From: Candidatus Bathyarchaeota archaeon BA2 | GTDB taxonomy: Archaea; Thermoproteota; Bathyarchaeia; Bathyarchaeales; Bathyarchaeaceae | Direction of reading: 5' to 3' | DNA: 52,557 nucleotides | Assembly (NCBI GenBank): GCA_001399795.1 | Contig: LIHK01000054.1 | Coordinates: 375 to 52,931 of the forward strand | Shown: piece after piece, positions 20,482 through 52,557 of the stretch | How the letters are laid out: each line of letters starts with the position of its first letter | Numbering within the stretch: the stretch's first letter is position 1 | Program-made: the position numbers and the translations under genes | Notes under the pieces: generated by a model | The model's input: the letters and a program-made list of their open reading frames with translations, nothing else | What the model was told of the DNA's origin: nothing | The model's database searches: none

Positions 20482-21359
20482 TGGAGAATGTTCTTCTTCC
20501 AAAATTGGCGAAGATTGTGAAAAGTGAAAAGATGACGGCGATAGAAAGATTTCTCCAAGTGGAAGTACTGGATAAAAAGTTCGCAGAAGTGTTTGATTAC
20601 CAGCCGGGACAGTTCATAGAAGTCAGCATTATGGGTGTGGGAGAAGCCCCAATTTCTACATGCTCCATACGAACCAAAAAGGGCGTCATAGATTTATGCG
20701 TCAGAAACGTGGGGCGAGTCACCAACGCAATTCACCACCTGAACATAGGATCATTAATTGGAATAAGAGGACCCTACGGAAACGGATTTCCAATGGAGGA
20801 AATGGAGGGAAGCAATCTACTGCTGGTAGCTGGAGGCTTAGGAGTCGCGCCCCTCCGATCTGTTCTTCAATACGCTCTAAAAAACAGAGCGAAATACAAG
20901 GACATAACCGTCTTCTACGGTATCAGAACTTATGACACCATGTTGTTCAGAGACGAATTCTATAATCTTCTCGCGGAAGGCGACAAGTTAGGTTGCAAAT
21001 TTTACCTATCTTATGAAGACTCGAAAGATAAACAATGTATTTCATTAGAAGCAGAGCATAGTGAAAGATGCATGTGCGGGGTCGTAACCAAGTTGTTTGA
21101 AAGAATAAAATTGTCTCCCGAAGATACGTATGCCATAATCTGCGGTCCCCCCATAATGTACCGATTTGTCGTGCAAGAACTTACAAAGAAGCAAGTTCCC
21201 CCAGAGAAAATATACATGACCCTTGAAAGAAGAATGAAGTGCGGAATAGGAAAATGCGGCCACTGCATAATCGGCGACGGAACATCCATAAAGTACGTCT
21301 GCAAAGACGGACCAGTGTTTACCTACTGGGACGCCCTTCATACGAAAGGCATGATCTAG
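20478..21359 (+). CDS. hydG: Group 3b hydrogenase gamma subunit (FAD/NAD(P)-binding, 2Fe-2S)
   Basis: PGQF, RGPYGNGF, AGGLGVAP, CGPPIM and ERRMKCGIGKCGHC...VCKDGPVF. Confidence 0.92.
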   Translation: MMENVLLPKLAKIVKSEKMTAIERFLQVEVLDKKFAEVFDYQPGQFIEVSIMGVGEAPISTCSIRTKKGVIDLCVRNVGRVTNAIHHLNIGSLIGIRGPYGNGFPMEEMEGSNLLLVAGGLGVAPLRSVLQYALKNRAKYKDITVFYGIRTYDTMLFRDEFYNLLAEGDKLGCKFYLSYEDSKDKQCISLEAEHSERCMCGVVTKLFERIKLSPEDTYAIICGPPIMYRFVVQELTKKQVPPEKIYMTLERRMKCGIGKCGHCIIGDGTSIKYVCKDGPVFTYWDALHTKGMI

Positions 21360-21371
21360 GAGGCACATAAC

Positions 21372-22172
21372 ATAGCAAAACCAAAAATCGGTATTTACGG
21401 TCTAACTGGCTGCGCTGGCGACCAGTTGATGATTTTGAACCTTGAAGATGAATTGCTGGATCTACTGAGTAATTTGGACGTAAAATCTTTCATCATGGCA
21501 AGTAGTGCTCATGAGGAAACCGACTTGGATGTAGCATTTGTTGAGGGTTCTGTCAGTACCGAAGAAGGTTTGGAACGTCTGAAGGACATAAGAAAGAGAA
21601 GCAAGATACTAATCGCCATAGGAGACTGCGCGGTATGGGGATGCGTTCAAGCCATGAGAAACCAAGAGATGAGTATGAAAGAAAGGATGAGGAAAGTATA
21701 CGATAAAGAAGAAAACTTTTATGATGTGCTTGAGCCAAAAGGCCTTTCAGCCTATGTAGATGTCGATCTGGAGATACCAGGTTGCCCCATTGACAAAATT
21801 GAGTTTCTTAATGCTGTTCTTTCGCTACTGCACGGTGACTTACCAGAAGTAAAAGATTATCCAGTGTGCGTTGAATGTAAGCTCAACGAGTACCAATGTC
21901 TACTTGTAGAAAAGGGGATGCCCTGTCTAGGACCAATAATAGTTGCAGGTTGCAACGCATTATGCCCAGGATTAGGAGTAGACTGTATTGGGTGTAGAGG
22001 GCCTATCAGGGATGAAACAAATGCCGCAGAGGAGTTAAATGTTCTAAAAGAGAAGGGCTACGACGAAAAATACATTAAGAACAGACTGAAGTTTTTCGGA
22101 GCAAACTTTGGTGAAATAGCCAAATTATCCAAAATGCTAGAGAAAAAACAACCGGGAAAAGGAGGTAAGTGA
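21372..22172 (+). CDS. hydD: Group 3b hydrogenase small (delta) subunit; probable non-canonical ATA start
   Basis: The frame extends upstream of the listed TTG (21426) to (I/M)AKPKIGIYGLTGCAGDQL, which holds the first cluster ligand; GGAGG at 21359-21363. Also GDCAVWG, IPGCP and CIGCRG. Confidence 0.88.
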   Translation: MAKPKIGIYGLTGCAGDQLMILNLEDELLDLLSNLDVKSFIMASSAHEETDLDVAFVEGSVSTEEGLERLKDIRKRSKILIAIGDCAVWGCVQAMRNQEMSMKERMRKVYDKEENFYDVLEPKGLSAYVDVDLEIPGCPIDKIEFLNAVLSLLHGDLPEVKDYPVCVECKLNEYQCLLVEKGMPCLGPIIVAGCNALCPGLGVDCIGCRGPIRDETNAAEELNVLKEKGYDEKYIKNRLKFFGANFGEIAKLSKMLEKKQPGKGGK

Positions 22173-22175
22173 AAA

Positions 22176-23465
22176 ATGAGTAGAGAAATAGTAGTAGAAC
22201 ATCTGGCCAGAGTTGAAGGCCACGGAAGAATAGAGGTCACGGTTGAAGGTGAAAAAGTAAAAGATGTCAAGATGGGAATTCTTGAAGGCCCAAGATTCTT
22301 TGAGGCATTCATTGAAGGCGTAAAGTACGACAAGGTTCCAGATGTAATGAGAAGAATCTGCGCAATATGCACCGCCGCCCATAGCCTTGCTTCCATTCGC
22401 GCTATTGAGAAGGCTTTCAAAGTCGAAGTTACCCCCCAGACAAAGTTGCTGAGGGACCTCCTCATACATGGAGAGATGATTGAAAGCCACGCATTACATG
22501 TGTTCATGCTCGCGCTTCCAGATTACTTAGGATATCCAGATGCAATAAGCATGGTTGACAAGTATGCCAAGGAAGTGAAGGCGGCGCTCCAACTAAAAAA
22601 AGCGGGAAACATGGTCCACATCCTTTTAAGTGGAAGAGAAGTCCACGGCATGAATGAACGCGTAGGAGGAATTTCAACCATACCCGAAGAGCAAGACCTG
22701 CTCGCAATCAGGAAAGCCATGGAAGGCTCCAAAGCAACAGCTGAACTTGCGGTAAAACTGTTCACAACCATAGATGTCCCTGATTTTGCACAATCCGAAA
22801 ATGCTCTCATGGCGTTGGATCCGGGAAAGAAATTTGGATATATCGGCGATTACGTGCTGATTTCCAATGGAGAAAGGAGAAGAGTTGAAGAGTACAGAGA
22901 ACTGACAAATGAAAAAGTGGTGAAGCACGCCCACGCAAAGCACTCTTCCTACAAGGATTCTCCCTTCATGGTTGGAGCCCTTCCCAGAATTTGTCTTTGC
23001 AAAGACAAACTCTACGGAACAGCTAAGGAGCTGTTTAAAGAGTATGAAGACAAACTGGATCACAGAAATTCTCTAAACAATAACCTAGCCCAAGCAATAG
23101 AGCTCGTCCACAGCGTAGACAGATGCATCGAAGACATAGACGAGCTTTTGAGCAACGGCCTCGAAAAAGAGGGGCTGGTGGAAATTGAGCCAAGAGAAAG
23201 CTCCGCAGTCGGCGCCGTAGAGGCTCCGAGGGGAATTCTCTACCACAACTATTCCTTCGATGAGAACGGTTGCATAACTAAAGCCAACGTGATAACGCCC
23301 ACAGCTATGAACTGCGCCAACATAGAGAAGGACTGTAGAGTTGCTGTTGAAAGGCTGGTCGCTGAGGGAAAGAAGAATTTAGAAGAGCCCTTGGAGCTAA
23401 TTGCAAGGGCCTACGATCCTTGCATATCCTGCTCGGTGCACCTAGTTAAAGTAAAGTTTCTTTAG
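22176..23465 (+). CDS. hydA: Group 3b [NiFe]-hydrogenase large subunit
   Basis: ARVEGHG, L1 RICAICTAAH, L2 YDPCISCSVH with a 7-aa cleavable tail. Confidence 0.95.
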   Translation: MSREIVVEHLARVEGHGRIEVTVEGEKVKDVKMGILEGPRFFEAFIEGVKYDKVPDVMRRICAICTAAHSLASIRAIEKAFKVEVTPQTKLLRDLLIHGEMIESHALHVFMLALPDYLGYPDAISMVDKYAKEVKAALQLKKAGNMVHILLSGREVHGMNERVGGISTIPEEQDLLAIRKAMEGSKATAELAVKLFTTIDVPDFAQSENALMALDPGKKFGYIGDYVLISNGERRRVEEYRELTNEKVVKHAHAKHSSYKDSPFMVGALPRICLCKDKLYGTAKELFKEYEDKLDHRNSLNNNLAQAIELVHSVDRCIEDIDELLSNGLEKEGLVEIEPRESSAVGAVEAPRGILYHNYSFDENGCITKANVITPTAMNCANIEKDCRVAVERLVAEGKKNLEEPLELIARAYDPCISCSVHLVKVKFL

Positions 23466-23673: not shown

Positions 23674-25128
23674 TCACCTTTTCAAGGTTTTCAGCAACTT
23701 TTTGTTGTGGCTGTATATTTTCACTTCGAGGGGCATTTGACCTATTGCGAAGTGGGTTGCGCAGGCCCAGCATGGGTCATAGGCTCTGAAGGCCATCTCC
23801 ACCATGTTCAATATTCCCTGGCTCACTTCTCCGCCGTGTATAAGGCCTTTGGCTGCGTCTCTTATGGACATGCATATGGCGGAAGAGTTGTTTGTTGTAG
23901 CCACTATTAGATTGACCTTTTTTATTAGGGCGTCTTCGTCAAGTTGATAGTGATGTATCAGGGTGCCCCTGGCCGCTTCGATTATTCCGACTCCTTCTCT
24001 GGGGTTGCCTACCTCATTCCGAAGGTCTTTACTTGTTATCTCCTCGTCTCTGCTTAGTTCTAAGCATCTTTCTGCCGCGTATAGTAGTTCTATGAGTCTG
24101 GCCCAATGAAATGCAAGAGTTGAGTGTACCGGCTTTCCGCCCAGTGTTTCATACATTCTCTCATATTCTTGCTGTGCTAGAGGAGTTGCCATACCCTCTG
24201 AAGCGTTTAACCTACCGAGCGGTCCAACCCTGTAAACGCCACTTGCTGGACCGTCAACTAAGCCTTTCCATCCAACCTTTTTGAGGTACGTCAATTTCGT
24301 GTATGTCCAGTCTTCCACGCGTTCCTCGATGACATCCAAGTATTCGGAGGGGCCAAATTTCACAAACTCTTTGCCTTGAGGGTCAACCACCCTTACTTTA
24401 CCATCATAGAAGTTGACTTTGTTGTTTTGGTCAACCGTGCCCATGTAATACGTTTTGAGAGTGTACGGGGCACTCAGGATTATGTCTACGTACTTCTTGT
24501 TCTTCAACACAACATCATCAAATATTTTTAAGCTGAACTTTGCGAATTCAACGCTAGACTCCGCCATCTCTTCAATTTCCTGCCTCTCCTCCTCTGTGAG
24601 TCCTTTGGATATGCCCCCAGGTAGTCCACAGTTGGGGTGAGTTGCTTTTCCGCCAAACATGGCGGTGATTTTTTGTCCGTAGGCTCTGTGCTTTATTACC
24701 TCTTTCGCTATGTCTAAACCAACTTTTCGGATTACTCCAAGAATGTTTCTTTCCGCTGGTGGGGCATCTGGTCCAACAACAAAGTCTGGTGCCCCTAGAA
24801 AGTAGAAGTGAAGAGTGTGATCATAGACATAATAGCCACTATACATGAGTTCCCTAAGCTTTTTAGCTGCCGGAGGAGGTTCAACGTTAAATGCGGCGTC
24901 TAACGCTTTTGTTGAGGCAAAATGGTGCGCAACTGGGCAAACACCGCAGATTCTGGGCGTAATTATCGGTAAATCCTCGGCCCTTCTACCCTCGCAGAAC
25001 CTCTCAAACCCTCTCAGCTCTGGAACTTGGAAGTAAGCGTTCTCTACGTTTCCATCCTCATTTAGGAATATGGATATTTTTCCATGGCCCTCTAGTCTAG
25101 TGATGGGGTCTATGGTTATTGTTTTCAT
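23674..25128 (-). CDS. mvhA: Group 3c (Mvh) [NiFe]-hydrogenase large subunit
   Basis: TRLEGHG, L1 RICGVCPVAH, L2 YDPCWACATH plus a C-terminal extension. Confidence 0.95.
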   Translation of the reverse strand: MKTITIDPITRLEGHGKISIFLNEDGNVENAYFQVPELRGFERFCEGRRAEDLPIITPRICGVCPVAHHFASTKALDAAFNVEPPPAAKKLRELMYSGYYVYDHTLHFYFLGAPDFVVGPDAPPAERNILGVIRKVGLDIAKEVIKHRAYGQKITAMFGGKATHPNCGLPGGISKGLTEEERQEIEEMAESSVEFAKFSLKIFDDVVLKNKKYVDIILSAPYTLKTYYMGTVDQNNKVNFYDGKVRVVDPQGKEFVKFGPSEYLDVIEERVEDWTYTKLTYLKKVGWKGLVDGPASGVYRVGPLGRLNASEGMATPLAQQEYERMYETLGGKPVHSTLAFHWARLIELLYAAERCLELSRDEEITSKDLRNEVGNPREGVGIIEAARGTLIHHYQLDEDALIKKVNLIVATTNNSSAICMSIRDAAKGLIHGGEVSQGILNMVEMAFRAYDPCWACATHFAIGQMPLEVKIYSHNKKLLKTLKR

Positions 25129-26111
25129 TCTTTTATGACCCTCCGTTTAAGAAGAGAAGCTGGCAACGAATACTTGTAAAAGGTTCCTAGGGGGTCTTTA
25201 ATCTGGGCAACCAGTTTTTCCGCGTCATACTCCGGCCCCCTTTCTCCACCAACTCCCAAAATTGATGAGAGGGCACTCATCATTGCTGCCCCCTGTTCCA
25301 CCTCATTTGGACATGGTCCTCCACATCCTGTGCATGGCATATTTGCGCTGACACACTGGGTCTCGCAGCCGCCACGAGTCGCAGGTCCCATACAGATTAT
25401 TCCTTGTTCCAGAAGGCATCTTTCTGGTTCTGGAGTAATCTCGTAGACTCTGTATATCTTGGAAATTTTCTTGTCTTCTTTTTTCCTAGGACATTCATCG
25501 CAGACAGACTTCACGGGAGCAAGCACAGAACCTTTCGGAGGCAACTCATTTTTAGCAATTGCCTCCACTGCCTTAGCTACTTGGGCGGATGGTGGAGGGC
25601 ATCCGGGCAGGTAGTAGTCTACATCCACGGTTTGATCGAGAGTTTTCACTGTGTCAAAGAATTCTGGCAGCTTCAACTCCCCTTCCGGAACCTTGAAAGA
25701 AGTCTTGGGGGTTCCGGAATTGGGGTTATTTGTAGAGGGGGACTGAAGGTATGCCCTTTCAAAGACCTCTTTTCTATTTGCAACGTTTGCGAGACCTGGA
25801 ACGCCGCCTAATTGGGCACATGAACCGAAGGCTAGTAGAACCTTAGATTTCTTTCTCAAGAGTTTGGCCATATATTCCTGTTCTTCGGTTCTAATGGCAC
25901 CGTTGAAGAAGCAGACATCTATGTATTTGTCGGGCATTGCCTCTACATCTTTATATTTGATGTCCATCGCCACTGGCCAAAAGACAATGTCAGCTATGGC
26001 AACGACATCGAGAATTTTCTCGTCTATATCCAAAACTGCGATTTCACAGCCTCCGCAGCTAGCAGCCCAGTAGAAGGCAAACTTCAGCTTTTCCTTTTCC
26101 ATAGAAATCAC
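25125..26111 (-). CDS. mvhG: Mvh hydrogenase small subunit
   Basis: WAASCGGCE, FGSCA, LPGCPP, CDECPR, CMGPATRGGC and CTGCGG; ATG at 26102 is a likely start. Confidence 0.93.
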   Translation of the reverse strand: MISMEKEKLKFAFYWAASCGGCEIAVLDIDEKILDVVAIADIVFWPVAMDIKYKDVEAMPDKYIDVCFFNGAIRTEEQEYMAKLLRKKSKVLLAFGSCAQLGGVPGLANVANRKEVFERAYLQSPSTNNPNSGTPKTSFKVPEGELKLPEFFDTVKTLDQTVDVDYYLPGCPPPSAQVAKAVEAIAKNELPPKGSVLAPVKSVCDECPRKKEDKKISKIYRVYEITPEPERCLLEQGIICMGPATRGGCETQCVSANMPCTGCGGPCPNEVEQGAAMMSALSSILGVGGERGPEYDAEKLVAQIKDPLGTFYKYSLPASLLKRRVIKE

Positions 26112-26983
26112 AGGAGACTCACAAGTTCAGAGGCGTCGACCCTAAGGTCTTTAAAGGCTAATTCATCGGGGCTCATGCCCATAGCTAGCCCCAATAGCTG
26201 TGAATAGTGAAGCACGGGGATGCGGAATTTTTCATTGAAGGTTCTTTCTATTCTGGATTGGTTAAGGTCATACATCATGTGGCAGAACGGACACACGGTG
26301 ATCATCGCCTGTGCCCCTACCGCCCTAATGTGATCAAGTTTTTCTCTAGCCAACTGAAGTGGAATTTCAGCGTTTACACCGATTATTGGGGCGCCGCAGC
26401 ACTCCGTTTCATCCATGTAGTCCAAGCATTTTGCGCCAGTTACTTTGATTAGGGTTTTGAGAGCTGTGGGGTTTTCCGGGTCATCAAAGCCTACGACCTT
26501 TCCGGGACGAATGACGTGGCATCCGGTATGCTGCGCTACGCGGAGCTGAGTGAGCGGCTTTTGAACGTTATCCTTTATCTTTTCAAAGCCAACGTCTTTC
26601 GCGAGCACGTAGATAAGATGTTTAACAGTTATTGTCCCCTTGAATTCCATGCCTATTTCCTTTAAGTATCCATTAACCCTCTCCCTGAGTTTCCTATCTT
26701 CCTTGAGTTCTTTGTTTACGTGGTTTAGGGTACCGAAACATCCGTTGCATAATGCCACGATATTTAGGTTTTGTTGCTCTGCCAAACAGAGGTTTCGCGC
26801 CGCTAGGGTGAGCATCATGTCGTGGTTTACTGGATCCAGTGGTAATCCACAGCAATTAAACTCCGGCATTTCCACTACTTCTACTCCAAGTTTGTCGAGG
26901 ACTTTTCTTGTGGAAATCTCGTAACTGGAGATTCTGTACGGGATAACGCATCCCATAAAGAGTAAGTACTTTAGCTCCGGCAT
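26108..26983 (-). CDS. hdrB: Heterodisulfide reductase subunit B
   Basis: Two CCG domains (GC...CCG...CNGC; GCH...CCG...CPFCH). Confidence 0.93.
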   Translation of the reverse strand: MPELKYLLFMGCVIPYRISSYEISTRKVLDKLGVEVVEMPEFNCCGLPLDPVNHDMMLTLAARNLCLAEQQNLNIVALCNGCFGTLNHVNKELKEDRKLRERVNGYLKEIGMEFKGTITVKHLIYVLAKDVGFEKIKDNVQKPLTQLRVAQHTGCHVIRPGKVVGFDDPENPTALKTLIKVTGAKCLDYMDETECCGAPIIGVNAEIPLQLAREKLDHIRAVGAQAMITVCPFCHMMYDLNQSRIERTFNEKFRIPVLHYSQLLGLAMGMSPDELAFKDLRVDASELVSLL

Positions 26984-27535
26984 TTAGGTTCCCACCTTTT
27001 CAAGTATCTTGGAAAGACCTGTGATGTCGAAAAGTTTTGCAACGTTTTCCAGGTTAGCTTTTGGGAGGAGGGGCAGCCCTTCCTCTGCCCTCTTTTTGAG
27101 GCGCAGTTCCGGAATCATGTATGCGTAGCCTGTTTTTAGAATGTTAGAAGCCAACTCTTTAAAGACGACAGGCATATCCCTTTCTCTCACAGATAGGTTT
27201 CGAAGAGCCCGTATAATGTCGGCGATTCCCACGTCTTGCGGACAATGGTCGATGCATGTAAAGCAGGTAGAACAGAGCCAGATGACGTCGCTTGAAAGAA
27301 GTCTGTCTTTCAGACCTAGTTGCGTCATTCGGATGAGTTTTCTGGGTCTGTAGAAGTCGCTGAATCGCGCGATGGGGCAGTCAGCTGTGCAGGTGCCGCA
27401 TTGGAAGCACAGCATGACCTTTTCTGCGCCGGGAATTTTGCTGATCTCGTATTTGAATCTGGGATCTACATCGGTGATTTTGAGCACCATTCTTTGTTCA
27501 GTTTCCTTAGCTTCTCCTTTTTCAGTCTCAGCCAT
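26984..27535 (-). CDS. hdrC: Heterodisulfide reductase subunit C
   Basis: CFQCGTCTADCP and WLCSTCFTCIDHCPQ. Confidence 0.93.
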   Translation of the reverse strand: MAETEKGEAKETEQRMVLKITDVDPRFKYEISKIPGAEKVMLCFQCGTCTADCPIARFSDFYRPRKLIRMTQLGLKDRLLSSDVIWLCSTCFTCIDHCPQDVGIADIIRALRNLSVRERDMPVVFKELASNILKTGYAYMIPELRLKKRAEEGLPLLPKANLENVAKLFDITGLSKILEKVGT

Positions 27536-27965
27536 AGATTAAACCCTCCACTTGCACCTTCAATGGGCTTGGTCCAAGTTTCTTTATTTCCTCCGTCATA
27601 TCCTTAATAACTGTTGCGAATTTATCTCCTTCCGACGCAGAGACCCATTCTATCCTAAGCCTTTCGGGCTCGATACCAAACTGGAGTAAAAGCTTCTTCA
27701 ACATCATGATCCTTCGATGTGCTTTGAAATTGCCTGAGATGTAGTGGCAGTCGGATGGGAGGTGGCATCCAGCGACCAGAACCCCGTCTGCTCCGCTTCT
27801 AAATGCTTCGAGGATGAAAACTGGGTCCACCCTTCCACTGCACATCACCCGCACGATCCTGATGTTTGGAGGATACTGAATCCGGCTTACGCCAGCTAGG
27901 TCCGCCCCTGCATACGCGCACCAGTTGCACAGGAAACCAACGATTTTTGGCTCAAACTCAGTCAT
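27528..27965 (-). CDS. mvhD: MvhD [2Fe-2S] subunit
   Basis: FLCNWCAYAGAD, RVMCSGRV, GCHLPSDCHY and WVSASEG. Confidence 0.95.
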   Translation of the reverse strand: MTEFEPKIVGFLCNWCAYAGADLAGVSRIQYPPNIRIVRVMCSGRVDPVFILEAFRSGADGVLVAGCHLPSDCHYISGNFKAHRRIMMLKKLLLQFGIEPERLRIEWVSASEGDKFATVIKDMTEEIKKLGPSPLKVQVEGLIYG

Positions 27966-30900
27966 GTTTCTTCTCCCTCAACGCTGCTCTGACTTGAGCA
28001 AGTATTTCATCATCTGTGAAATGAAGCATGCTTATAGCTCCTGTGGGACAGGAGGAACCGCAAACACCGCAACCTTTGCACAGAGCCTCAAGAACAGTTG
28101 ACACCAACTTTCCGTCTTTCCCTTCCATTTTGATGGCGCCGTACTCGCAAAGGGCTTCGCAGATTCTGCACCCGCTGCACAAGTCTTCGTTGACGCTCGC
28201 GATAGCCCCCTCCACTTCTAAAGCCTTTTTGGAGAGAATTGTGATTGCGCGAGCCGCGGCTCCACACGCTTGCGAAATACTTTCTTCAATTAGCTTCGGT
28301 GAATGCGCCAACCCGCATAGAAACACGCCTTCAGTCGCGAAATCAATAGGGCGAAGCTTCATGTGAGCCTCCAAGAAAAATCCGTCCTTGGTGAGGGGAA
28401 CCTTCAACATTTCTGATATTCTTTGGTTGTCAGGATTTGGAATTGTAGCTGCGCTCAGCACCAAGAGATCTGGCTCGATTGGGAGCCATGTTTTTAAAAC
28501 GGGCTCCATTGCCAAAACTTTGAGGGGCCCATTTTCTCTTGAAACCCTAGGTTTGTTTTCATCGTCATATCGTATGAACAAAATCCCTCTACTCGCAGCC
28601 TCACGGTAATAGTCCTCATTTAACCCGTATGTTCTTACATCCTTATAAAAAACGTAAACATCTGTTTCCGAGCTTAATTCCTTAATTTTCAATGCGTTTT
28701 TAACAGCTTGTACGCAGCATATTCGTGAACAGTTGGGACGTTCCTCATTTCTTGATCCGACGCATTGTATCATCGCCACCGTCTTCGCGTTGAACTCGCC
28801 CTTAGCCAGTCTTTCCTCCAGTTCACGCTGCGTCAACACTCTTTCATCTTCCTTATACAGATATTCAGTTGGCTTATATTCAATGGCTCCAGTTGCCACT
28901 ATTACGATACCGTGGTCGATCTCCTTTTTTTCACCGTTGTGGTTCAGTGTAGTTTTGAAGTTTCCGACGTATCCCTCTATGTTGGCAATTTCCGCGCCTA
29001 GATAAACATGAATCTTCTCGTTTTCAGAAACTTCTTTAACAATCGAGCTTAGCCGCTCCTGTGGGTCTTCACTTCCCAGCACATAATGGATGTGGCGCAG
29101 GTTCCCTCCAAGCTCCTTCTCCTTTTCCACCAAGTGAACATCAAAGCCTTGTTTCGCCAGTTCCAACGCAGCAGTCATGCCGGATAAGCCACCGCCTATG
29201 ACTAAGCCCACGGGAACAACATTAATCATGGGCTTTTTCAGGGGTTTCAACAAGCGAGCCTTGGCCACAATCGACCTTACCAAGTCTTTAGCCTTCTCTG
29301 TTGCTTTCTCGTGCTCGTGCATGTGCACCCACGAGCATTGGTCCCGGATGTTGGACATCTCGAAGAGGTAGATGTTGAGCCCGGCCTCTCGTATGGTCTC
29401 TCTGAAGAGGGGCTCGTGGGTTCTCGGGGTGCACGAAGCCACGACTACACGGTTTAGGTTGTGCTCCTTGATCTTCTCCCGTATCCTCTTCTGCGTGTCT
29501 TGCGAGCACGTGTAGAGGTTTTCCTCTGCGTACACGACGTTTGGCAGAGTCTTAACGTACTCCACGATCTCTGGCACGTTCACTACTCCGCCGATGTTGA
29601 TGCCGCAGTGACAGATGAACGCTCCGATGCGGGGTTCTTCACCGGACACGTCTATCTCTGACGGAAGCTCCTTTATGACCGTGAGTTTACCCCTCTCCGT
29701 GGCGATGATGCTAGCAGCCTTCGCCGCGGCTCCGCTCGCTTGAGCCACGCTTTCCGGTATGTCCTTGGGGGCGGCAAATGTGCCGCAGACGTAGATTCCT
29801 GGTCTGGAGGTTTCTAGGGGTGAGAAAGTTTCGGTAGAGCAGAAGTTATACTTGTTGAGTTTGATGCCGAATGCTTTGGCGAGTCCCTCGACCCCCTTGG
29901 GCGGTCTCATACCCACCGACAGAACTACGAGGTCGAATTCTTCGTCTTTCGGCTCCTCCTCCACCACATGTCTCACGATAAGATTTTGTGACTCCGGAAC
30001 CTCCTCCACGCGAGAAACCCTGGATCGGACAAACCTTACCCCGTACTCTTCCTCAGCCCGACTGTAATAAGCGTCAAACTCTTTCCCGAAGGCGCGCATG
30101 TCCATGAAGAAAATGGTGCATTGGAGGTCTGGATTGTGCTCCTTGGCTATGATTGACTCCTTGATGGCGTACATGCAGCAAGCGAAGGAGCAGTAGTTGT
30201 TTCCGAGCTTGGCGTCTCGTGAACCAACGCATTGGATAAAGGCTACTCTTCGTGGGACTTCGCCGTCAGAAGGTCTTAAAACCATTCCGCCGTAGGGTCC
30301 TGAGGCGCTTAGAATGCGCTCAAACTCGATGCTGGAGATCACGTTTGGATATCGGCCGTAACCGTACTCGCTCTTGAGGCTGGGGTCAAACTCCTCGAAA
30401 CCCGGCGCTAGGACGATTGATCCAACGTTTAGTACGATTTCTTTCTCCTCTTCATCGTATTCGATTGCGCCTGCCTTACAAACCTCTTGGCATGTTCCGC
30501 ACCCAATACATTTGTCTCTGTCGATAGCGAAGACCAAGGGAACCGCTTGTGGATACTTGACGTAAATTGCGCATCTTTCACTTAGACCCTGATTGAATTC
30601 GTCTATTGCCTCAACAGGGCACTTCTGAGCGCATACGCCACAACCAGTGCACTTCTCTTCATTGACACGCCTAGGCCTCCTTATCAGTTTAACTTTGAAG
30701 TTTCCCTCTTCACCCTCGACGCTCCTTATCTCCCCACCCATCACCAGCTCAATGTTAGGATGCCTTCCAGCGGTAACAAGTTTGGGCGCGAGAATACACA
30801 TTGCACAGTCGTTGGTTGGGAATGTTTTGTCCAGTTGGGTCATAGTGCCCCCTATGGTTGGCGATTCGTCCAGTAAGTAGACTTTAAATCCTGAGTCTGC

Positions 30901-30972
30901 TAGATCGAGGGACGCTTGTATTCCTGCTATTCCGCCGCCGACGACTAGTACGGCTCCTACCTTGTCTTTCAT
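27958..30972 (-). CDS. hdrA: Large double-module HdrA-family flavoprotein (1004 aa)
   Basis: Two FAD motifs (GGGIAG, GGGLSG), KTFPTNDC, an inserted ferredoxin, two CVGSR...CSxxCC motifs, an internal CHCGINI domain and a C-terminal 2x[4Fe-4S]. Confidence 0.92.
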   Translation of the reverse strand: MKDKVGAVLVVGGGIAGIQASLDLADSGFKVYLLDESPTIGGTMTQLDKTFPTNDCAMCILAPKLVTAGRHPNIELVMGGEIRSVEGEEGNFKVKLIRRPRRVNEEKCTGCGVCAQKCPVEAIDEFNQGLSERCAIYVKYPQAVPLVFAIDRDKCIGCGTCQEVCKAGAIEYDEEEKEIVLNVGSIVLAPGFEEFDPSLKSEYGYGRYPNVISSIEFERILSASGPYGGMVLRPSDGEVPRRVAFIQCVGSRDAKLGNNYCSFACCMYAIKESIIAKEHNPDLQCTIFFMDMRAFGKEFDAYYSRAEEEYGVRFVRSRVSRVEEVPESQNLIVRHVVEEEPKDEEFDLVVLSVGMRPPKGVEGLAKAFGIKLNKYNFCSTETFSPLETSRPGIYVCGTFAAPKDIPESVAQASGAAAKAASIIATERGKLTVIKELPSEIDVSGEEPRIGAFICHCGINIGGVVNVPEIVEYVKTLPNVVYAEENLYTCSQDTQKRIREKIKEHNLNRVVVASCTPRTHEPLFRETIREAGLNIYLFEMSNIRDQCSWVHMHEHEKATEKAKDLVRSIVAKARLLKPLKKPMINVVPVGLVIGGGLSGMTAALELAKQGFDVHLVEKEKELGGNLRHIHYVLGSEDPQERLSSIVKEVSENEKIHVYLGAEIANIEGYVGNFKTTLNHNGEKKEIDHGIVIVATGAIEYKPTEYLYKEDERVLTQRELEERLAKGEFNAKTVAMIQCVGSRNEERPNCSRICCVQAVKNALKIKELSSETDVYVFYKDVRTYGLNEDYYREAASRGILFIRYDDENKPRVSRENGPLKVLAMEPVLKTWLPIEPDLLVLSAATIPNPDNQRISEMLKVPLTKDGFFLEAHMKLRPIDFATEGVFLCGLAHSPKLIEESISQACGAAARAITILSKKALEVEGAIASVNEDLCSGCRICEALCEYGAIKMEGKDGKLVSTVLEALCKGCGVCGSSCPTGAISMLHFTDDEILAQVRAALREKKHD

Positions 30973-46825: not shown

Positions 46826-49087
46826 TTGCATGCAGAAATCAAAGTCAGCGGCATCGTTCAAGGCGTGGGTTTCCGACCTTTTGTCTACCGAGTTGCCGTA
46901 GAAAATGGACTAGTTGGCTATGTGCGAAACCGAGGAGACGCAGTCGTGGAAATCGTCGTTGAGGGAAAGAAAAAAGACGTTAAACGGTTCCTCAAAAATT
47001 TGAAAGAGAAAAAGCCTCCTCTCGCTCGAATCTACGATATGACAACCAATTACACCGAAGATAAGAACAAATTTAAACAATTTACGATTCTGAAGAGTTC
47101 CGAGAATGTTGAACTCTCCGGGTCTGTTATCCCACAAGACGTTTCGATCTGCGACGAATGTTTAAGCGAACTTCGAGACCCGAAAAATAAACGTTACAAC
47201 TATTTTTTCATCACGTGTACAAACTGCGGTCCTAGGTACACGATTATTGAGAAACTTCCCTACGATAGGCTGAACACCACCATGCAAGACTTCTTTATGT
47301 GTGACTTCTGTTTCAAAGAATACAACGATCCGTCAAACAGAAGGTTTCACGCTCAAACAGTTGCTTGCCCTAAATGTGGCCCAAAAGTCTACCTCACCAC
47401 AAATAACGACGAATCCATAAAGCATGAAGATCCCATAAGAGAAGCAGGCAAACTCTTGGAGGAAGGCTACATTGTTGCCATCAAGGGAAATGGAGGCTTC
47501 CACATCGCAACATCCACCACCAAGTCTGAACCCATTGCCAGATTGAGAAAGGTCAAGTATAGAGCCCAGAAACCTTTTGCAATAATGGCACGCGACATAG
47601 ATACCACAAAATCCTTCGCGGAGGTGAATATGAAAGAGGCCGAGCTGTTAACTTGCTATATTAAGCCCATAGTTTTGTTAAAGAAAAGGGATGACTACTA
47701 CCTTTCAGAACTCATCTCTCCCGGTTTACACAACATTGGTGTGATGCTTCCGTACACGGGCTTGCATGCAATGCTTTTTGACAAGGTACGGGAACCCGCC
47801 TTTGTTATGACTAGCGCAAACCCTCCCAACGAACCAATAGTCACGGAAAATGTTGAAGCCATGAAAAAGCTTGGTTCCGTGGTGGACTTCTTTCTTTTCC
47901 ACAACAGAACAATCGCCCATAGATGCGACGACTCTGTTGTTCGTCTCCACGGTGAAGATCAGAGTATAATTCGTAGATCAAGGGGGTACGCTCCTGAGCC
48001 TGTTCATCTGAAACGTTTGGCGGACAGTTATGTCTTAGGAGTTGGTGCAGAGTTCAACGTAACTTCATGTGTGCTTCTGCGGAACAAGGCTTTCATTTCA
48101 CAGCATGCCGGAGATGTTGATAACTTAGAGACGCTTGGCTTCTTGAAAAGTGCCATAAATCATTTGATAAAATTGACGAACAGCAAGGTTGAAGTTATAG
48201 CCTGTGACCTGCATCCAAAATTCACCACGACAAGGCTGGCTCAAAACCTAGGAGAAAAACTTGAATGTTCAGTGGTTCCAGTTCAACATCACCACGCTCA
48301 CATCGCCTCTCTCATGGGTGAACACGATGTTGACGAAATGATAGGCATAGCCTGCGATGGCTTCGGTTACGGTTCAGACGGCAACGCTTGGGGCGGAGAG
48401 ATACTCTACTGCAACCATGACGGTTTTCAGCGTTTGGGGCACCTTCAAGAGCAACCTATGGTGGGAGGCGACCTAGCCACGCTTTACCCATTAAGAGTGG
48501 CTGCCGGAATACTTTATGGCGAGGCTGATATTGAAGAATGGCTGCTGTTAAACAGCGACCGCTTCCCACACGGCAGAAGGGAAGTTGAAGTAATCGTTAA
48601 ACAGTTGGGAAAAGGATCAACACCCAAAACCACGAGTTGCGGGAGAGTACTAGACGCCGTGTCAGCAATACTAGGCATATGTTACGAGCGAACCTACGAG
48701 GGCGAGCCAGCGATGAAGTTAGAGTCTGCTGCCCTGAAGGGAAAAGACGTTTTAAAATTGACGCCAGAATTCAGGGGAAACGCCATCGACACCACACTTC
48801 TTGTTCATGAAATCTTCAATCAGAGAGGGAAACATTCGGTCGCTGACTTGGCTTGCTCAGCCCAGTCCTACCTTGCAAGGAGTTTAGCTGAGTTGGCTGT
48901 AGAGGAGGCGGAGCAACTTAACGTTGACTTTATCGGTTTTTCTGGGGGAGTTGCCTATAACGAGTACATCACAGTAACGATTAGAAAAATTGTTGAGGAA
49001 AACGGTTTCAAGTTCCTTGTTCATAATCAAGTTCCGCCTGGAGACGGAGGAATTTCATTTGGACAAGTCGTCGCTGCAGCCTTCTAA
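46826..49087 (+). CDS. hypF: Carbamoyltransferase HypF
   Basis: VQGVGFRPFVY acylphosphatase domain, two zinc fingers, QHHHAH and PPGDGGISFGQ. Confidence 0.96.
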   Translation: MHAEIKVSGIVQGVGFRPFVYRVAVENGLVGYVRNRGDAVVEIVVEGKKKDVKRFLKNLKEKKPPLARIYDMTTNYTEDKNKFKQFTILKSSENVELSGSVIPQDVSICDECLSELRDPKNKRYNYFFITCTNCGPRYTIIEKLPYDRLNTTMQDFFMCDFCFKEYNDPSNRRFHAQTVACPKCGPKVYLTTNNDESIKHEDPIREAGKLLEEGYIVAIKGNGGFHIATSTTKSEPIARLRKVKYRAQKPFAIMARDIDTTKSFAEVNMKEAELLTCYIKPIVLLKKRDDYYLSELISPGLHNIGVMLPYTGLHAMLFDKVREPAFVMTSANPPNEPIVTENVEAMKKLGSVVDFFLFHNRTIAHRCDDSVVRLHGEDQSIIRRSRGYAPEPVHLKRLADSYVLGVGAEFNVTSCVLLRNKAFISQHAGDVDNLETLGFLKSAINHLIKLTNSKVEVIACDLHPKFTTTRLAQNLGEKLECSVVPVQHHHAHIASLMGEHDVDEMIGIACDGFGYGSDGNAWGGEILYCNHDGFQRLGHLQEQPMVGGDLATLYPLRVAAGILYGEADIEEWLLLNSDRFPHGRREVEVIVKQLGKGSTPKTTSCGRVLDAVSAILGICYERTYEGEPAMKLESAALKGKDVLKLTPEFRGNAIDTTLLVHEIFNQRGKHSVADLACSAQSYLARSLAELAVEEAEQLNVDFIGFSGGVAYNEYITVTIRKIVEENGFKFLVHNQVPPGDGGISFGQVVAAAF

Positions 49088-49142
49088 ATGCCGTAAACCA
49101 GAACCGATTTATTTTAGGCACTCATCTTATAGGTGATATGAA

Positions 49143-49361
49143 ATGTGTCTCGCAATCCCGGCTAAGGTCCTAAAAGTTCAAGGAGACGTTGCAAAAGTCG
49201 ATTTTGGGCAAGGGGTTGCCCGAGACGTAAATGTCATGCTTGTAGAAGCCCGTGTGGGCGAATATGTTTTGGTTCACGCGGGATACGCCATTCAAGTTAT
49301 CGACCGAGAGGCGGCTGAGGAAACCCTCCGATTATGGGAAGAAATCCTCAAATATGAATGA
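49143..49361 (+). CDS. hypC: Hydrogenase assembly chaperone HypC
   Basis: MCLAIPAKV and VLVHAGYAI; GGTGA RBS. Confidence 0.96.
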   Translation: MCLAIPAKVLKVQGDVAKVDFGQGVARDVNVMLVEARVGEYVLVHAGYAIQVIDREAAEETLRLWEEILKYE

Positions 49362-50062
49362 AAGTTGGGAGGCATTACGCTTTGACTCGTTTGAAGGAAG
49401 CTGTCAAGGCTGAGGAAGGAGAAATCTACGACATAGAGCTTGATGCGGATCTTCTGAAAGTCAACGAAGAACTAGCAGCAAAAAATAGGGAGCTTTTACG
49501 GAAACATAATGTAACAGCAATTGATGTCATGGGAGCCATCGGATCGGGAAAAACCACCCTCATTGAAAAACTTGTTCAAGCGTTAAAGGGAAAGTATAGG
49601 ATCGCGGCTTTCAAGGGCGATTTGACAACAACAATAGACGCGGGGCTTATTGGAAAACACGGCGTAGAGGTTGTTCCCATTAACACTGGAAAAGAATGTC
49701 ATCTGGACGCAAACTTGGTGAGAAAGGCGTTCAAAAGAATTAACTTAGCGGAAATCGATCTCCTCTTTATTGAAAACGTTGGAAACCTCATTTGCCCCGC
49801 AGACTTTCCACTAGGCTCTGAGAAACGCATCGTTGTAGTAAGCGTCACCGAAGGACCCTACATGGTTGTTAAGCACCCGTTCATCTTTATGAGAGCAGAC
49901 GTAGCGGTTATAAACAAGAAGGATTTGGCCCAAGCGATGGGAGTTGATGTTAAGAAACTGGAGACGGATGTTAAGGAGATAAATCCAAACGCAAAAGTTG
50001 TGGCGACGAACTGCAGAAGCGGAGAGGGCGTCATAGAAGTGGTCTGTGCGTTGGGACTCTAA
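49358..50062 (+). CDS. hypB: Hydrogenase nickel incorporation GTPase HypB
   Basis: GAIGSGKT, ECHLDA, ENVGNLICPA and NKKD. Confidence 0.95.
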   Translation: MKVGRHYALTRLKEAVKAEEGEIYDIELDADLLKVNEELAAKNRELLRKHNVTAIDVMGAIGSGKTTLIEKLVQALKGKYRIAAFKGDLTTTIDAGLIGKHGVEVVPINTGKECHLDANLVRKAFKRINLAEIDLLFIENVGNLICPADFPLGSEKRIVVVSVTEGPYMVVKHPFIFMRADVAVINKKDLAQAMGVDVKKLETDVKEINPNAKVVATNCRSGEGVIEVVCALGL

Positions 50063-50088
50063 TCTAAACCTAGTGGAGCTACGGAAAA

Positions 50089-50460
50089 GTGCATGAATTT
50101 TCCATGATAACGCAAATCGTGGAAAACGTTCTTAAAGAGGCTGAAAAACATAGGGCAAAGAAGGTCACGGAAGTTAATCTTGTTATAGGAAAGCTGACGT
50201 TTCTAGGTCTCGAACAGGTTCGCTTCTCCTACGACGTACTGGTGAAGGGCACCATAATGGAGGGTTCAAAGCTTTACATAGAAGAGAAGAACGGTGTTGT
50301 CAAGTGTTCCAGTTGCGGCTACGAAGGAGACTTCATGTATGAAGACGATCCGATGTTTCACGTTCCAACCCCTACGCTTCACTGTCCTAAGTGTGAAGGC
50401 GTAGTCGACATCGTTAGAGGAAGAGAGTGCACGATAAAAAGCGTAAAACTCATAGTATAG
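50089..50460 (+). CDS. hypA: Nickel metallochaperone HypA
   Basis: MHEFSM with two CxxC motifs (CSSC, CPKC) and GREC. Confidence 0.95.
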   Translation: MHEFSMITQIVENVLKEAEKHRAKKVTEVNLVIGKLTFLGLEQVRFSYDVLVKGTIMEGSKLYIEEKNGVVKCSSCGYEGDFMYEDDPMFHVPTPTLHCPKCEGVVDIVRGRECTIKSVKLIV

Positions 50461-50552
50461 AAAGCCCAAGAATGTCGGCACTTATACCCAAATGAAACTT
50501 TATAAGGGAATATTATTTAATTGTGGGCAATAAATCGATTTGGTGGGAATAT

Positions 50553-50777
50553 ATGACGGTTGTGACGTTGAGTTCGAAGGGTAGATTAACGCTTCCAGCC
50601 GAGGTAGGGACTAAAATTAAAGCAGCAAGGTTTTTGGTTGTTTTGGAAGGCAATTCCATTAGGTTGATTCCGCTTTCAGACCCATTAAAATTAAAGGGGT
50701 CGGTTAAGATCCCTTGGAGCATCGAGGAGCTTGAAGAGGCTGGCGAGGAATTTGTATCCAAAAGAGTTGAAGGGTAG
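50553..50777 (+). CDS. AbrB/MazE-family antitoxin (VapB-like)
   Basis: VTLSSKGRLTLPAEV motif; overlaps the start of the downstream PIN gene. Confidence 0.8.
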   Translation: MTVVTLSSKGRLTLPAEVGTKIKAARFLVVLEGNSIRLIPLSDPLKLKGSVKIPWSIEELEEAGEEFVSKRVEG

Positions 50778-51199
50778 ATTCCTCTTAGACTCTGATGTTT
50801 TATATCGTATATTAGAGGGAATATAAGCTTGCAGACCATGCGGAGGTTGTTGTAAAATCAATAGTTGAAGGCATGGCAGAAGTGTTTGTATCATCTATGT
50901 TATATGATGATGTGATTTCTGGACTACGCTCAAAGGGCATGGAGCTCGCAGATGTGATGCAGGTTCTCACAGCTATAGCGTCAATACCTCATACACCTCT
51001 TCCCGTAACTCCAGCAATCGCTATAAGCGCTTTAACACTTTACATGCAGCATGGCGGTCCAAGAAAAATCCATTATTTCGATACGTTTCATGTGGCAACG
51101 GCTAGACTTCATGAATTGCCGATGATAACAAGCGACATTTACATAAACGAACATCAAAGGAACCTAGGTATAACAGCGGTTGACCTGAAAAAGTTATGA
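50767..51199 (+). pseudogene. vapC: PIN-domain VapC toxin, frameshifted near the 5' end
   Basis: TTG 50767 gives MKGRFLLDSDV, then TAA at 50824; the PIN body (KLADHAEVVV...HYFDTFHVATA...ITSD) continues in another frame to 51199. Confidence 0.75.
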
Positions 51200-51240
51200 A
51201 GCCCATTTATTTCACAGCTCTAATGGTAAATGTAGTGGGG

Positions 51241-52356
51241 GTGAGGCTGGCGTCAATTTCTAGGTTTAGAGATCCAAACCTAGTTCGGAAAACAGCAGAA
51301 CACATCAAAAAACTAGCAGAAAGAAGTAAATTCACGTTCATGCATGTGTGTGGAACGTATTTAGCAACCTAGCTAGATACGCACAAGACACATGAATGGA
51401 CGATAGCCCGCTACGGTCTTCGAGCTCTTCTTTCCGACACTGTGGATGTTATTGCTGGGCCGGGCTGTCCCGTCTGCATCCTCCCCGCAGCTGAAATCGA
51501 CGAGGCGATATCGTTAGCCCTAAACGAAGTAACTGTTGTAACCTTCGGCGACGTTATTCGGGTTCCTGGCTCTGAATCGTCGCTTCAGGAGGCAAAGGCT
51601 TCTGGTGGGGACGTTAGGATTGTGTATGGCGTTGGGGATGCTGTGAGAATGGCGGAGAAAGAGCCAGACAAGGATTTTGTTTTCTTTGCTATTGGGTTTG
51701 AAACCACGGCGCCGTCTACTGCCATTGAAATCCTTAACAAGCCGCCCCAAAACCTTAGCTTTCTCGTCTCCCATAGGTTGATTCCGCCAGCCATGGAACT
51801 GCTCCTCGGTGTAGGAAACCTTCACATAGACGGCTTCATCGCACCTGGCCACGTTTCCACCATCATCGGAATGAAGCCCTATGAAATATTTCCCAATGCC
51901 TATCGAATGCCTACTGTGATAGCCGGATTCGAGCCTCTGGATGTTCTTTTCGCCATCTCCATGCTGCTCCAGCAGTTAAAGGACGGGGAAGCCAGACTTG
52001 AGAATGAGTATAAGCGTTCTGTCACGTGGGAGGGCAACGTCAAAGCGCAGCGGCTCATGGAGCAAGTGTTCAGTGTGGTGGATGGATGCTGGAGGGGACT
52101 TGGAAAACTTCCCCTATCAGCGCTGGCATTAAAGGAAGAATTCCTAGAGTACGATGCGAGGAAAAAATACGACTTACAGATTGAACGTCCCAGAGACCTG
52201 ATGCCTGGTTGCCTTTGCCACCTAGTCATGATTGGAAAGATAAAGCCTCCAGAATGCCCTCTCTACATGAAGGCTTGCACGCCTCAGACTCCTAAGGGAG
52301 CGTGCATGGTTTCAATTGAAGGCACTTGCAGAATATGGGCCAAACATAAGCTATGA
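51241..52356 (+). CDS. hypD: Hydrogenase formation protein HypD, two exons (51241-51354 joined to 51388-52356)
   Basis: Exon 1 has RFRDP...FMHVCG; exon 2 has THEWTIARYGLR, GPGCPVC, GFETT, PGHVS and GACMVSIEGTC. The joined ORF is 360 aa. Start uncertain (in-frame ATGs at 51196 and 51223, GTG at 51241). Confidence 0.92.
51355..51387 (+). other. 33-nt bulge-helix-bulge (tRNA-type) intron in hypD pre-mRNA
   Basis: CATGTG|TGTG|GA^A|CGTATTTAGC-AACCTA-GCTAGATACG|CACA|AG^A|CACATG forms a 6-bp outer helix, two 3-nt bulges, a 4-bp central helix and a 10-bp inner helix. It contains an in-frame TAG (51370-51372), and excision restores HVCGTHE. Confidence 0.9.
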
Positions 52357-52557
52357 CTTATACAGAACTTTGCCTTTTTCGACGACTTCTACAATGAACG
52401 GGTTCTTTTTTCGCTTCATGTCTTGAAACTCTTCTGGTGTGTAGCCTACGGGTTCGATGGGTATTTTAAAGGTGTTTATATCCATCAGGGTTCTTATTCT
52501 GTTTAGAAAGTCTTCTTTGAAATCGGCGACAACCAAGATGTCGATGTCTGAGCCTTC
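52351..52557 (-). CDS. MNT-type nucleotidyltransferase domain protein (5' end outside the window)
   Basis: ...EGSDIDILVVADF...IEPVGYTPEEF...NPFIVEVVEKGKVLY. Confidence 0.8.
   Translation of the reverse strand, partial: EGSDIDILVVADFKEDFLNRIRTLMDINTFKIPIEPVGYTPEEFQDMKRKKNPFIVEVVEKGKVLYKS

Follow-up and report, generated by a model that had tools for sequence, protein, structure and literature searches.

In the genome of Candidatus Bathyarchaeota archaeon BA2, the gene encoding the hydrogenase maturation protein HypD is interrupted by 33 nucleotides (nt) that are likely to be a genuine, lineage-specific tRNA-type intron, set in a motif of the bulge-helix-bulge (BHB) type within a protein-coding mRNA and spliced out constitutively, as a matter of housekeeping. 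The gene belongs to a hyp cluster in a 52,557-nt stretch of DNA (hereafter ‘the window’; contig LIHK01000054.1 of assembly GCA_001399795.1, positions 375 to 52,931), to which all coordinates refer unless another contig is named.

An insert within the catalytic motif of hypD

The interrupted gene, as we divide it, consists of the following parts:

51196..52356, + strand: hypD, whole locus, interrupted by the 33-nt insert
51196..51354, + strand: hypD exon 1, frame open from 51196, ending ...CAT GTG TGT GGA (H V C G)
51355..51387, + strand: predicted 33-nt intron of hypD, ACGTATTTAGCAACCTAGCTAGATACGCACAAG; TAG in frame at 51370-72
51388..52356, + strand: hypD exon 2, 322 codons plus stop, beginning ACA CAT GAA TGG (T H E W)

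Read without splicing from 51196, the gene encodes ...FMHVCGT YLAT, then a stop, then LDTHKT HEWTIARYGLR..., the only stop being the TAG at 51370-51372. The resulting open reading frame (ORF; 51196-51372) is 58 amino acids (aa) long and terminates six residues past the Cys of the CGxH motif. A preliminary description of this DNA, made from the letters alone, had accordingly noted that the insert is a multiple of three, that it contains a stop, and that unspliced mRNA would give only a short peptide ending just after the essential Cys, all of which we find to be so.

Deleting 51355-51387 yields ...FMHVCGTHEWTIARYGL..., in which UGU GGA is followed directly by ACA CAU GAA UGG, so that the product reads CGTHEW; the uninterrupted motif C-H-[VI]-C-G-T-H-E-W is present in 112 of the 120 best database matches to exon 2. 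Taken as an ORF of its own (51442-52356), the exon-2 part matches the Pfam family HypD (5.3e-125) over profile positions 47-350 of 351. The true start of hypD is probably a GTG near 51241, to judge from alignments with relatives. An intein is ruled out, the insert being just 11 codons long and containing a stop.

Predicted bulge-helix-bulge structure

The insert and the exon bases on either side of it can be folded into an hBHBh' motif (helix, bulge, helix, bulge, helix) with the following elements:

51335..51402, + strand: hBHBh' motif, from a ViennaRNA fold whose register was moved by hand and then checked by script
51343-48 with 51389-94, + strand: outer helix, 6 base pairs (bp), with 7 further bp (51335-41 with 51396-402) beyond a 1x1 mismatch
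51349-52 (UGUG) with 51382-85 (CACA), + strand: central helix, 4 bp
G51353 A51354 ^ A51355, + strand: 5' bulge, predicted cut after the second base
51356-65 with 51372-81, + strand: inner helix, 10 bp, closed by a 6-nt loop (51366-71)
A51386 G51387 ^ A51388, + strand: 3' bulge, predicted cut after the second base

The core thus comprises two 3-nt bulges (GAA at 51353-55 and AGA at 51386-88) on opposite strands of a 4-bp helix, which is the canonical 3-4-3 arrangement. Archaeal BHB motifs are cut between the second and third bulge residues (PMC2738675, cited, like the other papers below, from the part of its text that is available).

The ViennaRNA minimum free energy (MFE) structure of 51335-51415 is a long hairpin of -32.8 kcal/mol (z = -6.6), a stability reached by none of 200 shuffled sequences, and the BHB fold, at -31.4 kcal/mol, lies 1.4 above it. 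When the 33 intron bases were shuffled with the exons held fixed, a minimal BHB in register arose in 416 of 200,000 trials and the 10-bp inner helix in none. A scan of the genome for BHB motifs (central helix of 4 bp, outer helix of at least 4, inner helix of at least 3, intron of 12-150 nt) returned 11,010 motifs, including 383 candidates that would join two ORFs; the hypD motif is one of 21 among the 11,010 with at least 16 flanking pairs, and ranks first among the 383. The intron has no further copy in the genome, which contains only chance matches of 10-15 nt, and an Rfam scan of the intron found no family near threshold (the top match had 21.9 bits where the gathering score is 90).

In the mechanism that we propose, the hyp transcript would fold locally into helix, 3-nt bulge, 4-bp helix, 3-nt bulge and helix, and an alpha-beta EndA (the archaeal tRNA endonuclease) would cleave behind the second base of each bulge, A51354 on the 5' side and G51387 on the 3' side. 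RtcB would then join the exons, connecting ...TGTGGA to ACACATGAATGG..., restoring CGTHEW and giving a HypD of about 360 residues; the tryptic peptide predicted across the spliced junction is ...FMHVCGTHEWTIAR. The intron would have been acquired in this lineage specifically, and selection on the helices of the BHB would keep it harmless.

Independent assemblies and a second intron-bearing lineage

The insert recurs in independently assembled DNA. In run X2, possibly the source sample, one Logan contig covers 50900-51734 with no differences, and two further contigs cross the site, both with G51357>A and C51380>T, and one of them also short of a base at 51372. Three further studies contribute one site-spanning contig apiece (runs X3, X4 and X5), with changes of the type seen in locus L053, described below (G51357>A, C51380>T, A51359>G, T51361>G, and the loss of one base each at 51371 and 51378). 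No contig joining 51354 straight to 51388 is listed in runs X2-X5. An assembly artefact is ruled out by the unchanged insert in the independent X2 assembly, together with the variants in the other contigs.

Scanning JGI metagenome contigs with a pattern spanning the intron matched a single locus, L053, which has a 31-nt intron, ACATGTGTAGCAACCTGCTAGAATGCACAAG, at the identical site. Unspliced, the L053 gene suffers a frameshift and many stops; spliced at the cuts that its BHB motif predicts, it encodes a full HypD, identical to that of the window at 308 of 364 positions. Its bulges, central helix and outer helix (6(+7) bp) are the same as in the window, preserving the 3-4-3 core, and its BHB fold is at -23.2, where the MFE is -25.0. 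Between the two full intron sequences there is one compensatory pair change: G57-C80, second pair of the inner helix, goes from G-C to A-U in L053, and the same replacement appears in the difference tables of five contigs.

Intron lengths of 33, 32 (inferred) and 31 nt indicate that the insert is not constrained to be translated. Another idea is that the ribosome copes with it directly, either reading TAG as pyrrolysine, with an 11-residue insertion, or skipping the insert by bypassing of the phage T4 gene 60 type. Such a reading could appeal to the multiple-of-three length and single TAG of the window insert and to a hairpin following a GGA codon, loosely like gene 60. The genome, however, has no PylS (best match 30.7 bits, against a cut-off of 178), the 31-nt version of L053 would shift the frame, and an 11-residue insertion would split the invariant CGTHEW that is uninterrupted in 112 of 120 relatives; as for bypassing, the codon before exon 2 is AAG, so that the GGA take-off codon has no matching GGA landing codon. 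We find translation through or around the insert hardly credible.

Selection on the spliced gene

The preliminary description had proposed measuring selection on both exons, which we did by comparing the spliced hypD genes of the window and L053 with a Nei-Gojobori script. The ratio of nonsynonymous to synonymous divergence (dN/dS) is 0.10 in exon 2 (322 codons, dS 0.76) and 0.39 in exon 1 (42 codons, the variable N-terminus included). Since both lineages carry the intron, these low ratios point to purifying selection with the intron in place, which makes a strong case against a pseudogene.

Window and L053 do not differ at any of the exon bases from which the helices are built (51330-54 and 51388-405), even though the proportion of synonymous differences (pS) elsewhere is ∼0.48; by rough arithmetic, the probability of such identity by chance is ∼0.007. 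In intron-less relatives (38 distinct sequences) the same codons vary freely, and none of the 38 has the full 6/6 complementarity of the outer helix (range 2-5). It therefore seems that RNA structure holds synonymous sites in place only in genes that have the intron.

These data also bear on the possibility that hypD was inactivated by a small hairpin-forming insertion whose BHB-like shape is fortuitous. A dead gene would show damage such as the in-frame stop of the window version and the shifted frame of L053, and, by the loose definition of the genome scan, BHB-like motifs are not rare (11,010). A gene so inactivated would not, however, be expected to keep exon 2 open over 322 codons in two lineages at a dS of 0.76 and a dN/dS of 0.10, to regain both motif and frame at the predicted cuts in a 33-nt and a 31-nt version alike, or to show a compensatory pair change and conserved synonymous sites in its helices. 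The observed inner helix was reached by none of the 200,000 shuffles, and intact genes remain for the hydrogenases and for the other Hyp proteins. Inactivation of hypD is, in our estimation, very improbable.

Splicing enzymes and a second candidate intron in cbf5

The enzymes required for splicing are encoded in the same genome. Our search for EndA, whose architecture the preliminary description had singled out for checking, found two genes (100.9 and 80.3 bits), both for housekeeping EndA subunits and no other kind: a protein of 185 aa that aligns to the C-terminal catalytic repeat of duplicated enzymes, and one of 193 aa that aligns to the N-terminal repeat, with weak resemblance to beta subunits. 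By these alignments the architecture is alpha-beta, with the alpha gene on C4 and the beta gene on C5; this is one of two EndA types that accept non-canonical introns (PMC5829648). An RtcB gene is also present (585 bits), and of 37 tRNA genes predicted by ARAGORN, 23 are flagged as containing introns, some of them implausible; our BHB scan, which is strict, recovered a motif in only 9 of these 23, and the ARAGORN intron calls are themselves unreliable.

The hypD intron seems to have a counterpart in cbf5. On contig C38 (14533-14550, minus strand), the genome's cbf5 gene contains a BHB intron of strict form, 18 nt long (AGACCTGAGGTCAGGGAA) and with an in-frame TGA, which splits the Asp codon of the GGTLD motif, between GGTL and DP. 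Across this gene and its counterparts in 11 family or order relatives (L092-L102), the strict test was passed in 10 of 12 loci, that is, in 9 of the 11 relatives, by introns of 18-29 nt at this same site that are often not a multiple of three, and two loci show covariation in the central helix (CCCU/AGGG to CUCU/AGAG). Splicing of mRNA by the tRNA machinery thus seems routine in this group. The same cbf5 gene has, at about C38:12800-14250 (minus strand), an in-frame insertion of ∼480 residues that looks intein-like by eye, starting with Cys and ending ...VVSN before a further Cys, with a middle part that resembles a homing endonuclease, again by eye.

To what extent there are more hidden BHB introns in mRNAs of this lineage, as the preliminary description had supposed, can be gauged from a rerun of the scan in which motifs spanned by an open frame were dropped and the minimum open stretch on each side was lowered from 50 to 40 codons. 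This left 233 candidates, cbf5 included, 20 of which were picked by hand for comparison of both flanks with Pfam, the choice falling on those whose two sides were open over a long distance and whose candidate intron had no start codon well within it. All 20 were rejected as gene junctions, because their downstream parts begin at the N-terminus of their own families; none splits a family. The supposition is thus borne out for one gene, cbf5, here and in 9 of 11 relatives, and for none of the other 20 candidates tested. The scan also contains further long BHB-like motifs, at window positions 11086-11157 (C22:11460-11531, + strand, C22 being the window contig), C13:90508-90587 (outer helix 8, inner helix 12), C11:21359-21407 (minus strand) and C24:11721-11795, which may represent sites of RNA processing, RNA genes missing from the annotation, or hairpins formed by chance.

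Copy number of hypD

A search for other copies, likewise proposed in the preliminary description, used the HypD profile and found one complete gene and a C-terminal fragment of 19 residues (57 nt, C15:1-57); there is no second complete hypD in the assembly, a metagenome-assembled genome (MAG) of 57 contigs that is 92.5% complete with 3.5% contamination. The window contig ends 200 nt past hypD, within a nucleotidyltransferase gene, and contig C15 begins with the end of hypD (87% DNA identity), followed by 1.2 kb of extra genes, the same nucleotidyltransferase (93%), and then unique sequence. Window 52288-52557 and C15:1-1479 appear to be diverged versions of one locus, the extra genes on C15 being ORFs of 90 aa and 194 aa.

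Between the fragment and hypE there are 3.3 kb, and in L053 the genes hypD and hypE are adjacent and convergent. The simplest reading is probably that of one hyp locus, broken by the assembler at a strain-variable spot. A database relative, P0003 (97% identical, with a C-terminus of the C15 type), starts MDVIAGPG, exactly like the exon-2 ORF of the window, and the C15-type variant probably carries the intron too.

Distribution and origin of the intron

Intact hypD is the rule among relatives. Of 60 sampled genomes (36 from the same family, 24 from the same order), 52 have a hypD match, none of them with a stop inside it; a DNA query across the site found the insert in none of 59 other genomes of the family. 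Among 16 family relatives with a DNA match, 14 align from exactly window position 51388 (query position 99), the predicted first base of exon 2. A pattern spanning the intron matched no GTDB contig, a second pattern (intron 3' end plus exon 2) gave two chance matches outside hypD and none in 400 genomes sampled from the class, and a protein search with the 58-aa exon-1 ORF returned only the query itself.

The protein databases nevertheless contain traces of the intron. Three relatives, P0016 (the same as L053), P0037 and P0095, have the N-terminus MHKTHEW or VHKTHEW, as results when the final nine bases of the L053 intron are translated together with exon 2, and the intron is probably present in lineages down to 80% HypD identity. 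Several intact hypD genes are 88-91% identical to that of the window, and hence closer to it than P0037 (83%). The public entries of close HypD relatives are N-terminally truncated in P0003, P0016, P0037 and P0095 (perhaps also P0079, P0085 and P0112), with starts at MHKTHEW, VHKTHEW or near VDVIAGPG/MDVIAGPG. Such entries are probably mis-annotated split genes, of the kind that a gene caller yields at the intron.

In a quick HypD tree, 51 of 117 inner branches are left open and the starred branches force at least one change, which does not choose between one gain followed by losses and lateral spread. The intron may be, or have been, a mobile element with the conserved sequence of the hypD catalytic motif as its target, passing from allele to allele instead of descending vertically from one insertion, an origin compatible with splicing. 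Its patchy distribution would fit, as P0016, P0037, P0095 and the window pair form no one supported clade in the quick tree and intact genes at 88-91% identity are nearer the window than P0037 at 83%; the hypD site also lies within a catalytic motif, as the cbf5 intron lies within the codon of a catalytic Asp. A single origin is, however, compatible with the same tree (at least one forced change), no endonuclease gene adjoins hypD in the window or L053, and the intron has no other copy in the genome. We consider a mobile origin unlikely on this balance. More generally, mini-introns of the BHB type may form a class of mobile elements for which codons of catalytic motifs in archaeal genes serve as homing sites (hypD CGxH, cbf5 catalytic Asp). 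Whatever the route, the intron is probably a neutral or selfish insertion; its absence from all 59 other family genomes fits a lineage-specific event of this kind better than a built-in control point.

Dependence of hydrogenase maturation on splicing

HypCD builds the Fe(CN)2CO unit. Because unspliced mRNA gives only a short peptide, synthesis of HypD very probably depends on splicing, and, if this is the sole hypD, so does the maturation of both [NiFe] hydrogenases encoded in the window. The preliminary description had gone further on both counts, calling splicing an obligatory gate on all [NiFe]-hydrogenase maturation and suggesting a post-transcriptional link between stable-RNA processing and energy metabolism. 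The first statement holds insofar as HypD would not be made from unspliced mRNA, its ‘all’ hinging on the hypD fragment on C15.

The second would have the cell vary intron removal, tuning hydrogenase maturation through the activity of EndA and RtcB or through a switch between the BHB and a competing fold. It would be served by the dependence of HypD on splicing, by a gap of only 1.4 kcal/mol between the BHB and MFE folds, which would allow two conformers to compete, and by the existence of conditional non-spliceosomal splicing in the eukaryotic HAC1/XBP1 mRNAs, mentioned in PMC13149111. EndA and RtcB are, however, needed for intron-bearing tRNAs in the same cell, so that any translating cell already has both activities, and no sensor or accessory gene was found next to the intron among the neighboring ORFs of the window or of L053. 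The intron is absent from all 59 of the other family genomes, and hypD is free of stops in each of the 52 sampled relatives that have it, from which it follows that the hydrogenase system works without such a gate. In addition, the cbf5 intron of the same genome belongs to a type with no known regulatory role in the available part of PMC7714728. We therefore do not retain the regulatory link proposed earlier, and judge regulated removal quite improbable. The same low probability attaches to its fullest version, in which conditional splicing, perhaps via the competing fold that is 1.4 kcal/mol more stable than the BHB, would make HypD supply, and with it the maturation of the two cytoplasmic [NiFe] hydrogenases, follow the state of the RNA-processing machinery; if true, it would constitute an archaeal counterpart of regulated splicing of the HAC1/XBP1 type. 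Splicing of hypD is most likely constitutive, by analogy with that of cbf5 and of the tRNAs in this genome.

For a constitutively spliced BHB intron in hypD, the geometry of the motif, the restored frame, the presence in relatives, purifying selection and the enzyme genes are direct observations. Several points nevertheless weigh against it. Cleavage and ligation, constitutive splicing and a single copy of hypD are all inferred, and none of the 22 listed sequencing runs is of RNA. In the ViennaRNA MFE structure a 4x4 internal loop takes the place of the two bulges, and L053 has a weaker inner helix, in which an internal loop separates 3 bp from 4 bp. L053 is, moreover, the only other intron-bearing relative with full DNA, the remaining variants being known from difference tables or deduced from protein N-termini. 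A second hypD copy, with or without the intron, could exist in an incomplete MAG, given that the C15 fragment is only 87% identical in DNA, although nothing points to an intron-less copy. Finally, the ARAGORN calls behind the housekeeping argument include an implausible intron of 1755 nt.

The hyp cluster and neighboring genes

The genes upstream of hypD and the two hydrogenases of the window are as follows:

46826..49087, + strand: hypF, 753 aa, intact ORF; Pfam HypF_C_2, Sua5_yciO_yrdC, zf-HYPF, HypF_C and Acylphosphatase
49143..49361, + strand: hypC, 72 aa, intact ORF; Pfam HupF_HypC (4.9e-27)
49358..50062, + strand: hypB, 234 aa, intact ORF; Pfam cobW/HypB/UreG domain (2.7e-23)
50089..50460, + strand: hypA, 123 aa, intact ORF; Pfam HypA (9e-28)
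50523..50777, + strand: ORF of 84 aa between hypA and hypD, no Pfam or NCBIfam family match
50873..51199, + strand: PIN-domain ORF of 108 aa between hypA and hypD; Pfam PIN (1e-05), no NCBIfam match
19465..23465, + strand: plausible group 3b-type [NiFe] hydrogenase, four genes (ShyB/C/D/A-like), large subunit (22176-23465) intact
23674..30972, - strand: plausible group 3c-type [NiFe] hydrogenase with heterodisulfide reductase: VhuA-like large subunit (23674-25128, intact), VhuG-like, HdrB, HdrC, VhuD/MvhD-like, HdrA

The rest of hypD and hypF, hypC, hypB and hypA had been described earlier as intact, and their open ORFs and Pfam family matches agree. As to the two intact hydrogenases of groups 3b and 3c in the same description, both large subunits are indeed open, with N-terminal CxxC and C-terminal CxxCxxH motifs; the group assignments, made from best NCBIfam matches (mostly under equivalog cut-offs) and gene order, are plausible. 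The gene hypE lies outside the window, on C15 (3338-4375), and is the sole hypE of the genome. No tRNA genes were found in the window.

The stop of the PIN-domain ORF overlaps the first ATG of the hypD frame. The 84-aa and PIN-domain ORFs (50523-51199) are a possible VapBC-like toxin-antitoxin module, and the pair was not found upstream of hypD in L053.

Comparison with known systems and significance

A BHB intron in the cbf5 pre-mRNA of Crenarchaeota was reportedly described by Watanabe et al. in 2002, and is treated by Yokobori et al. in 2009 (PMC2738675). That intron and the one in hypD share a short length, a position in the coding region, and a BHB composed of exon and intron bases; in both, the predicted cuts fall between the second and third bulge bases, the hosts have a two-subunit EndA, gain and loss are lineage-specific, and the interior of the intron is variable (PMC2738675). 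The host genes differ in function (metallocentre assembly for hypD, RNA modification for cbf5), as do the host lineages (Bathyarchaeia for hypD, Desulfurococcales and Sulfolobales for cbf5; PMC2738675). The hypD motif is strictly 3-4-3, whereas most crenarchaeal cbf5 motifs are unconventional or relaxed (PMC2738675), and the hypD intron is predicted from sequence.

The intron in the 5' untranslated region of HVO_1309 in Haloferax volcanii is likewise an EndA-type mRNA substrate outside tRNA and rRNA, but is located in a leader that is not translated, measures 46 nt and has been documented by sequencing of circular RNA (circRNA-seq) and cleavage in vitro (PMC7714728), whereas that of hypD breaks a reading frame and is predicted only. 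With archaeal pre-tRNA introns of the canonical hBHBh' form, the hypD intron shares an identical geometry and the same predicted enzymes, EndA and RtcB; in contrast to those introns, its substrate is an mRNA, and its outer and central helices are made of codons, which constrains synonymous sites. The IRE1-dependent HAC1/XBP1 system (mentioned in PMC13149111 and PMC10485636) resembles it in that non-spliceosomal cutting and ligation of an mRNA alters the protein. There, a tRNA ligase joins the exons (RtcB in metazoa) and the endonuclease is a dedicated stress sensor, so that splicing is conditional; the enzyme predicted for hypD is the housekeeping tRNA endonuclease, with no known condition-dependence.

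In its bulges, flanking helices, restored frame and protein motif, and in the splicing enzymes of its host, the hypD intron agrees with the BHB introns of archaeal pre-mRNAs. The searchable literature, including those papers available in part, contains two cases of such introns in archaeal mRNAs, cbf5 (PMC2738675) and the HVO_1309 leader (PMC7714728), and a 2023 review considers it likely that more archaeal mRNA substrates are still to be found (PMC10485636, available part). Searchable papers yielded nothing relevant on hypD introns or on BHB introns of Bathyarchaeota, and none that places a cbf5 intron in Bathyarchaeia. Measured against that literature, hypD would be the second coding-region case, and the first found in print for a metabolic gene and for Bathyarchaeia. 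The cbf5 mini-intron, in turn, is apparently common in this order, and would widen the known range beyond Desulfurococcales and Sulfolobales.

For the organisms themselves, the presence of the intron would mean that the helix-forming codons of hypD are frozen at synonymous positions. As gene callers split such genes, hydrogenase maturation could be wrongly scored as broken in these alkane-/methane-related archaea.

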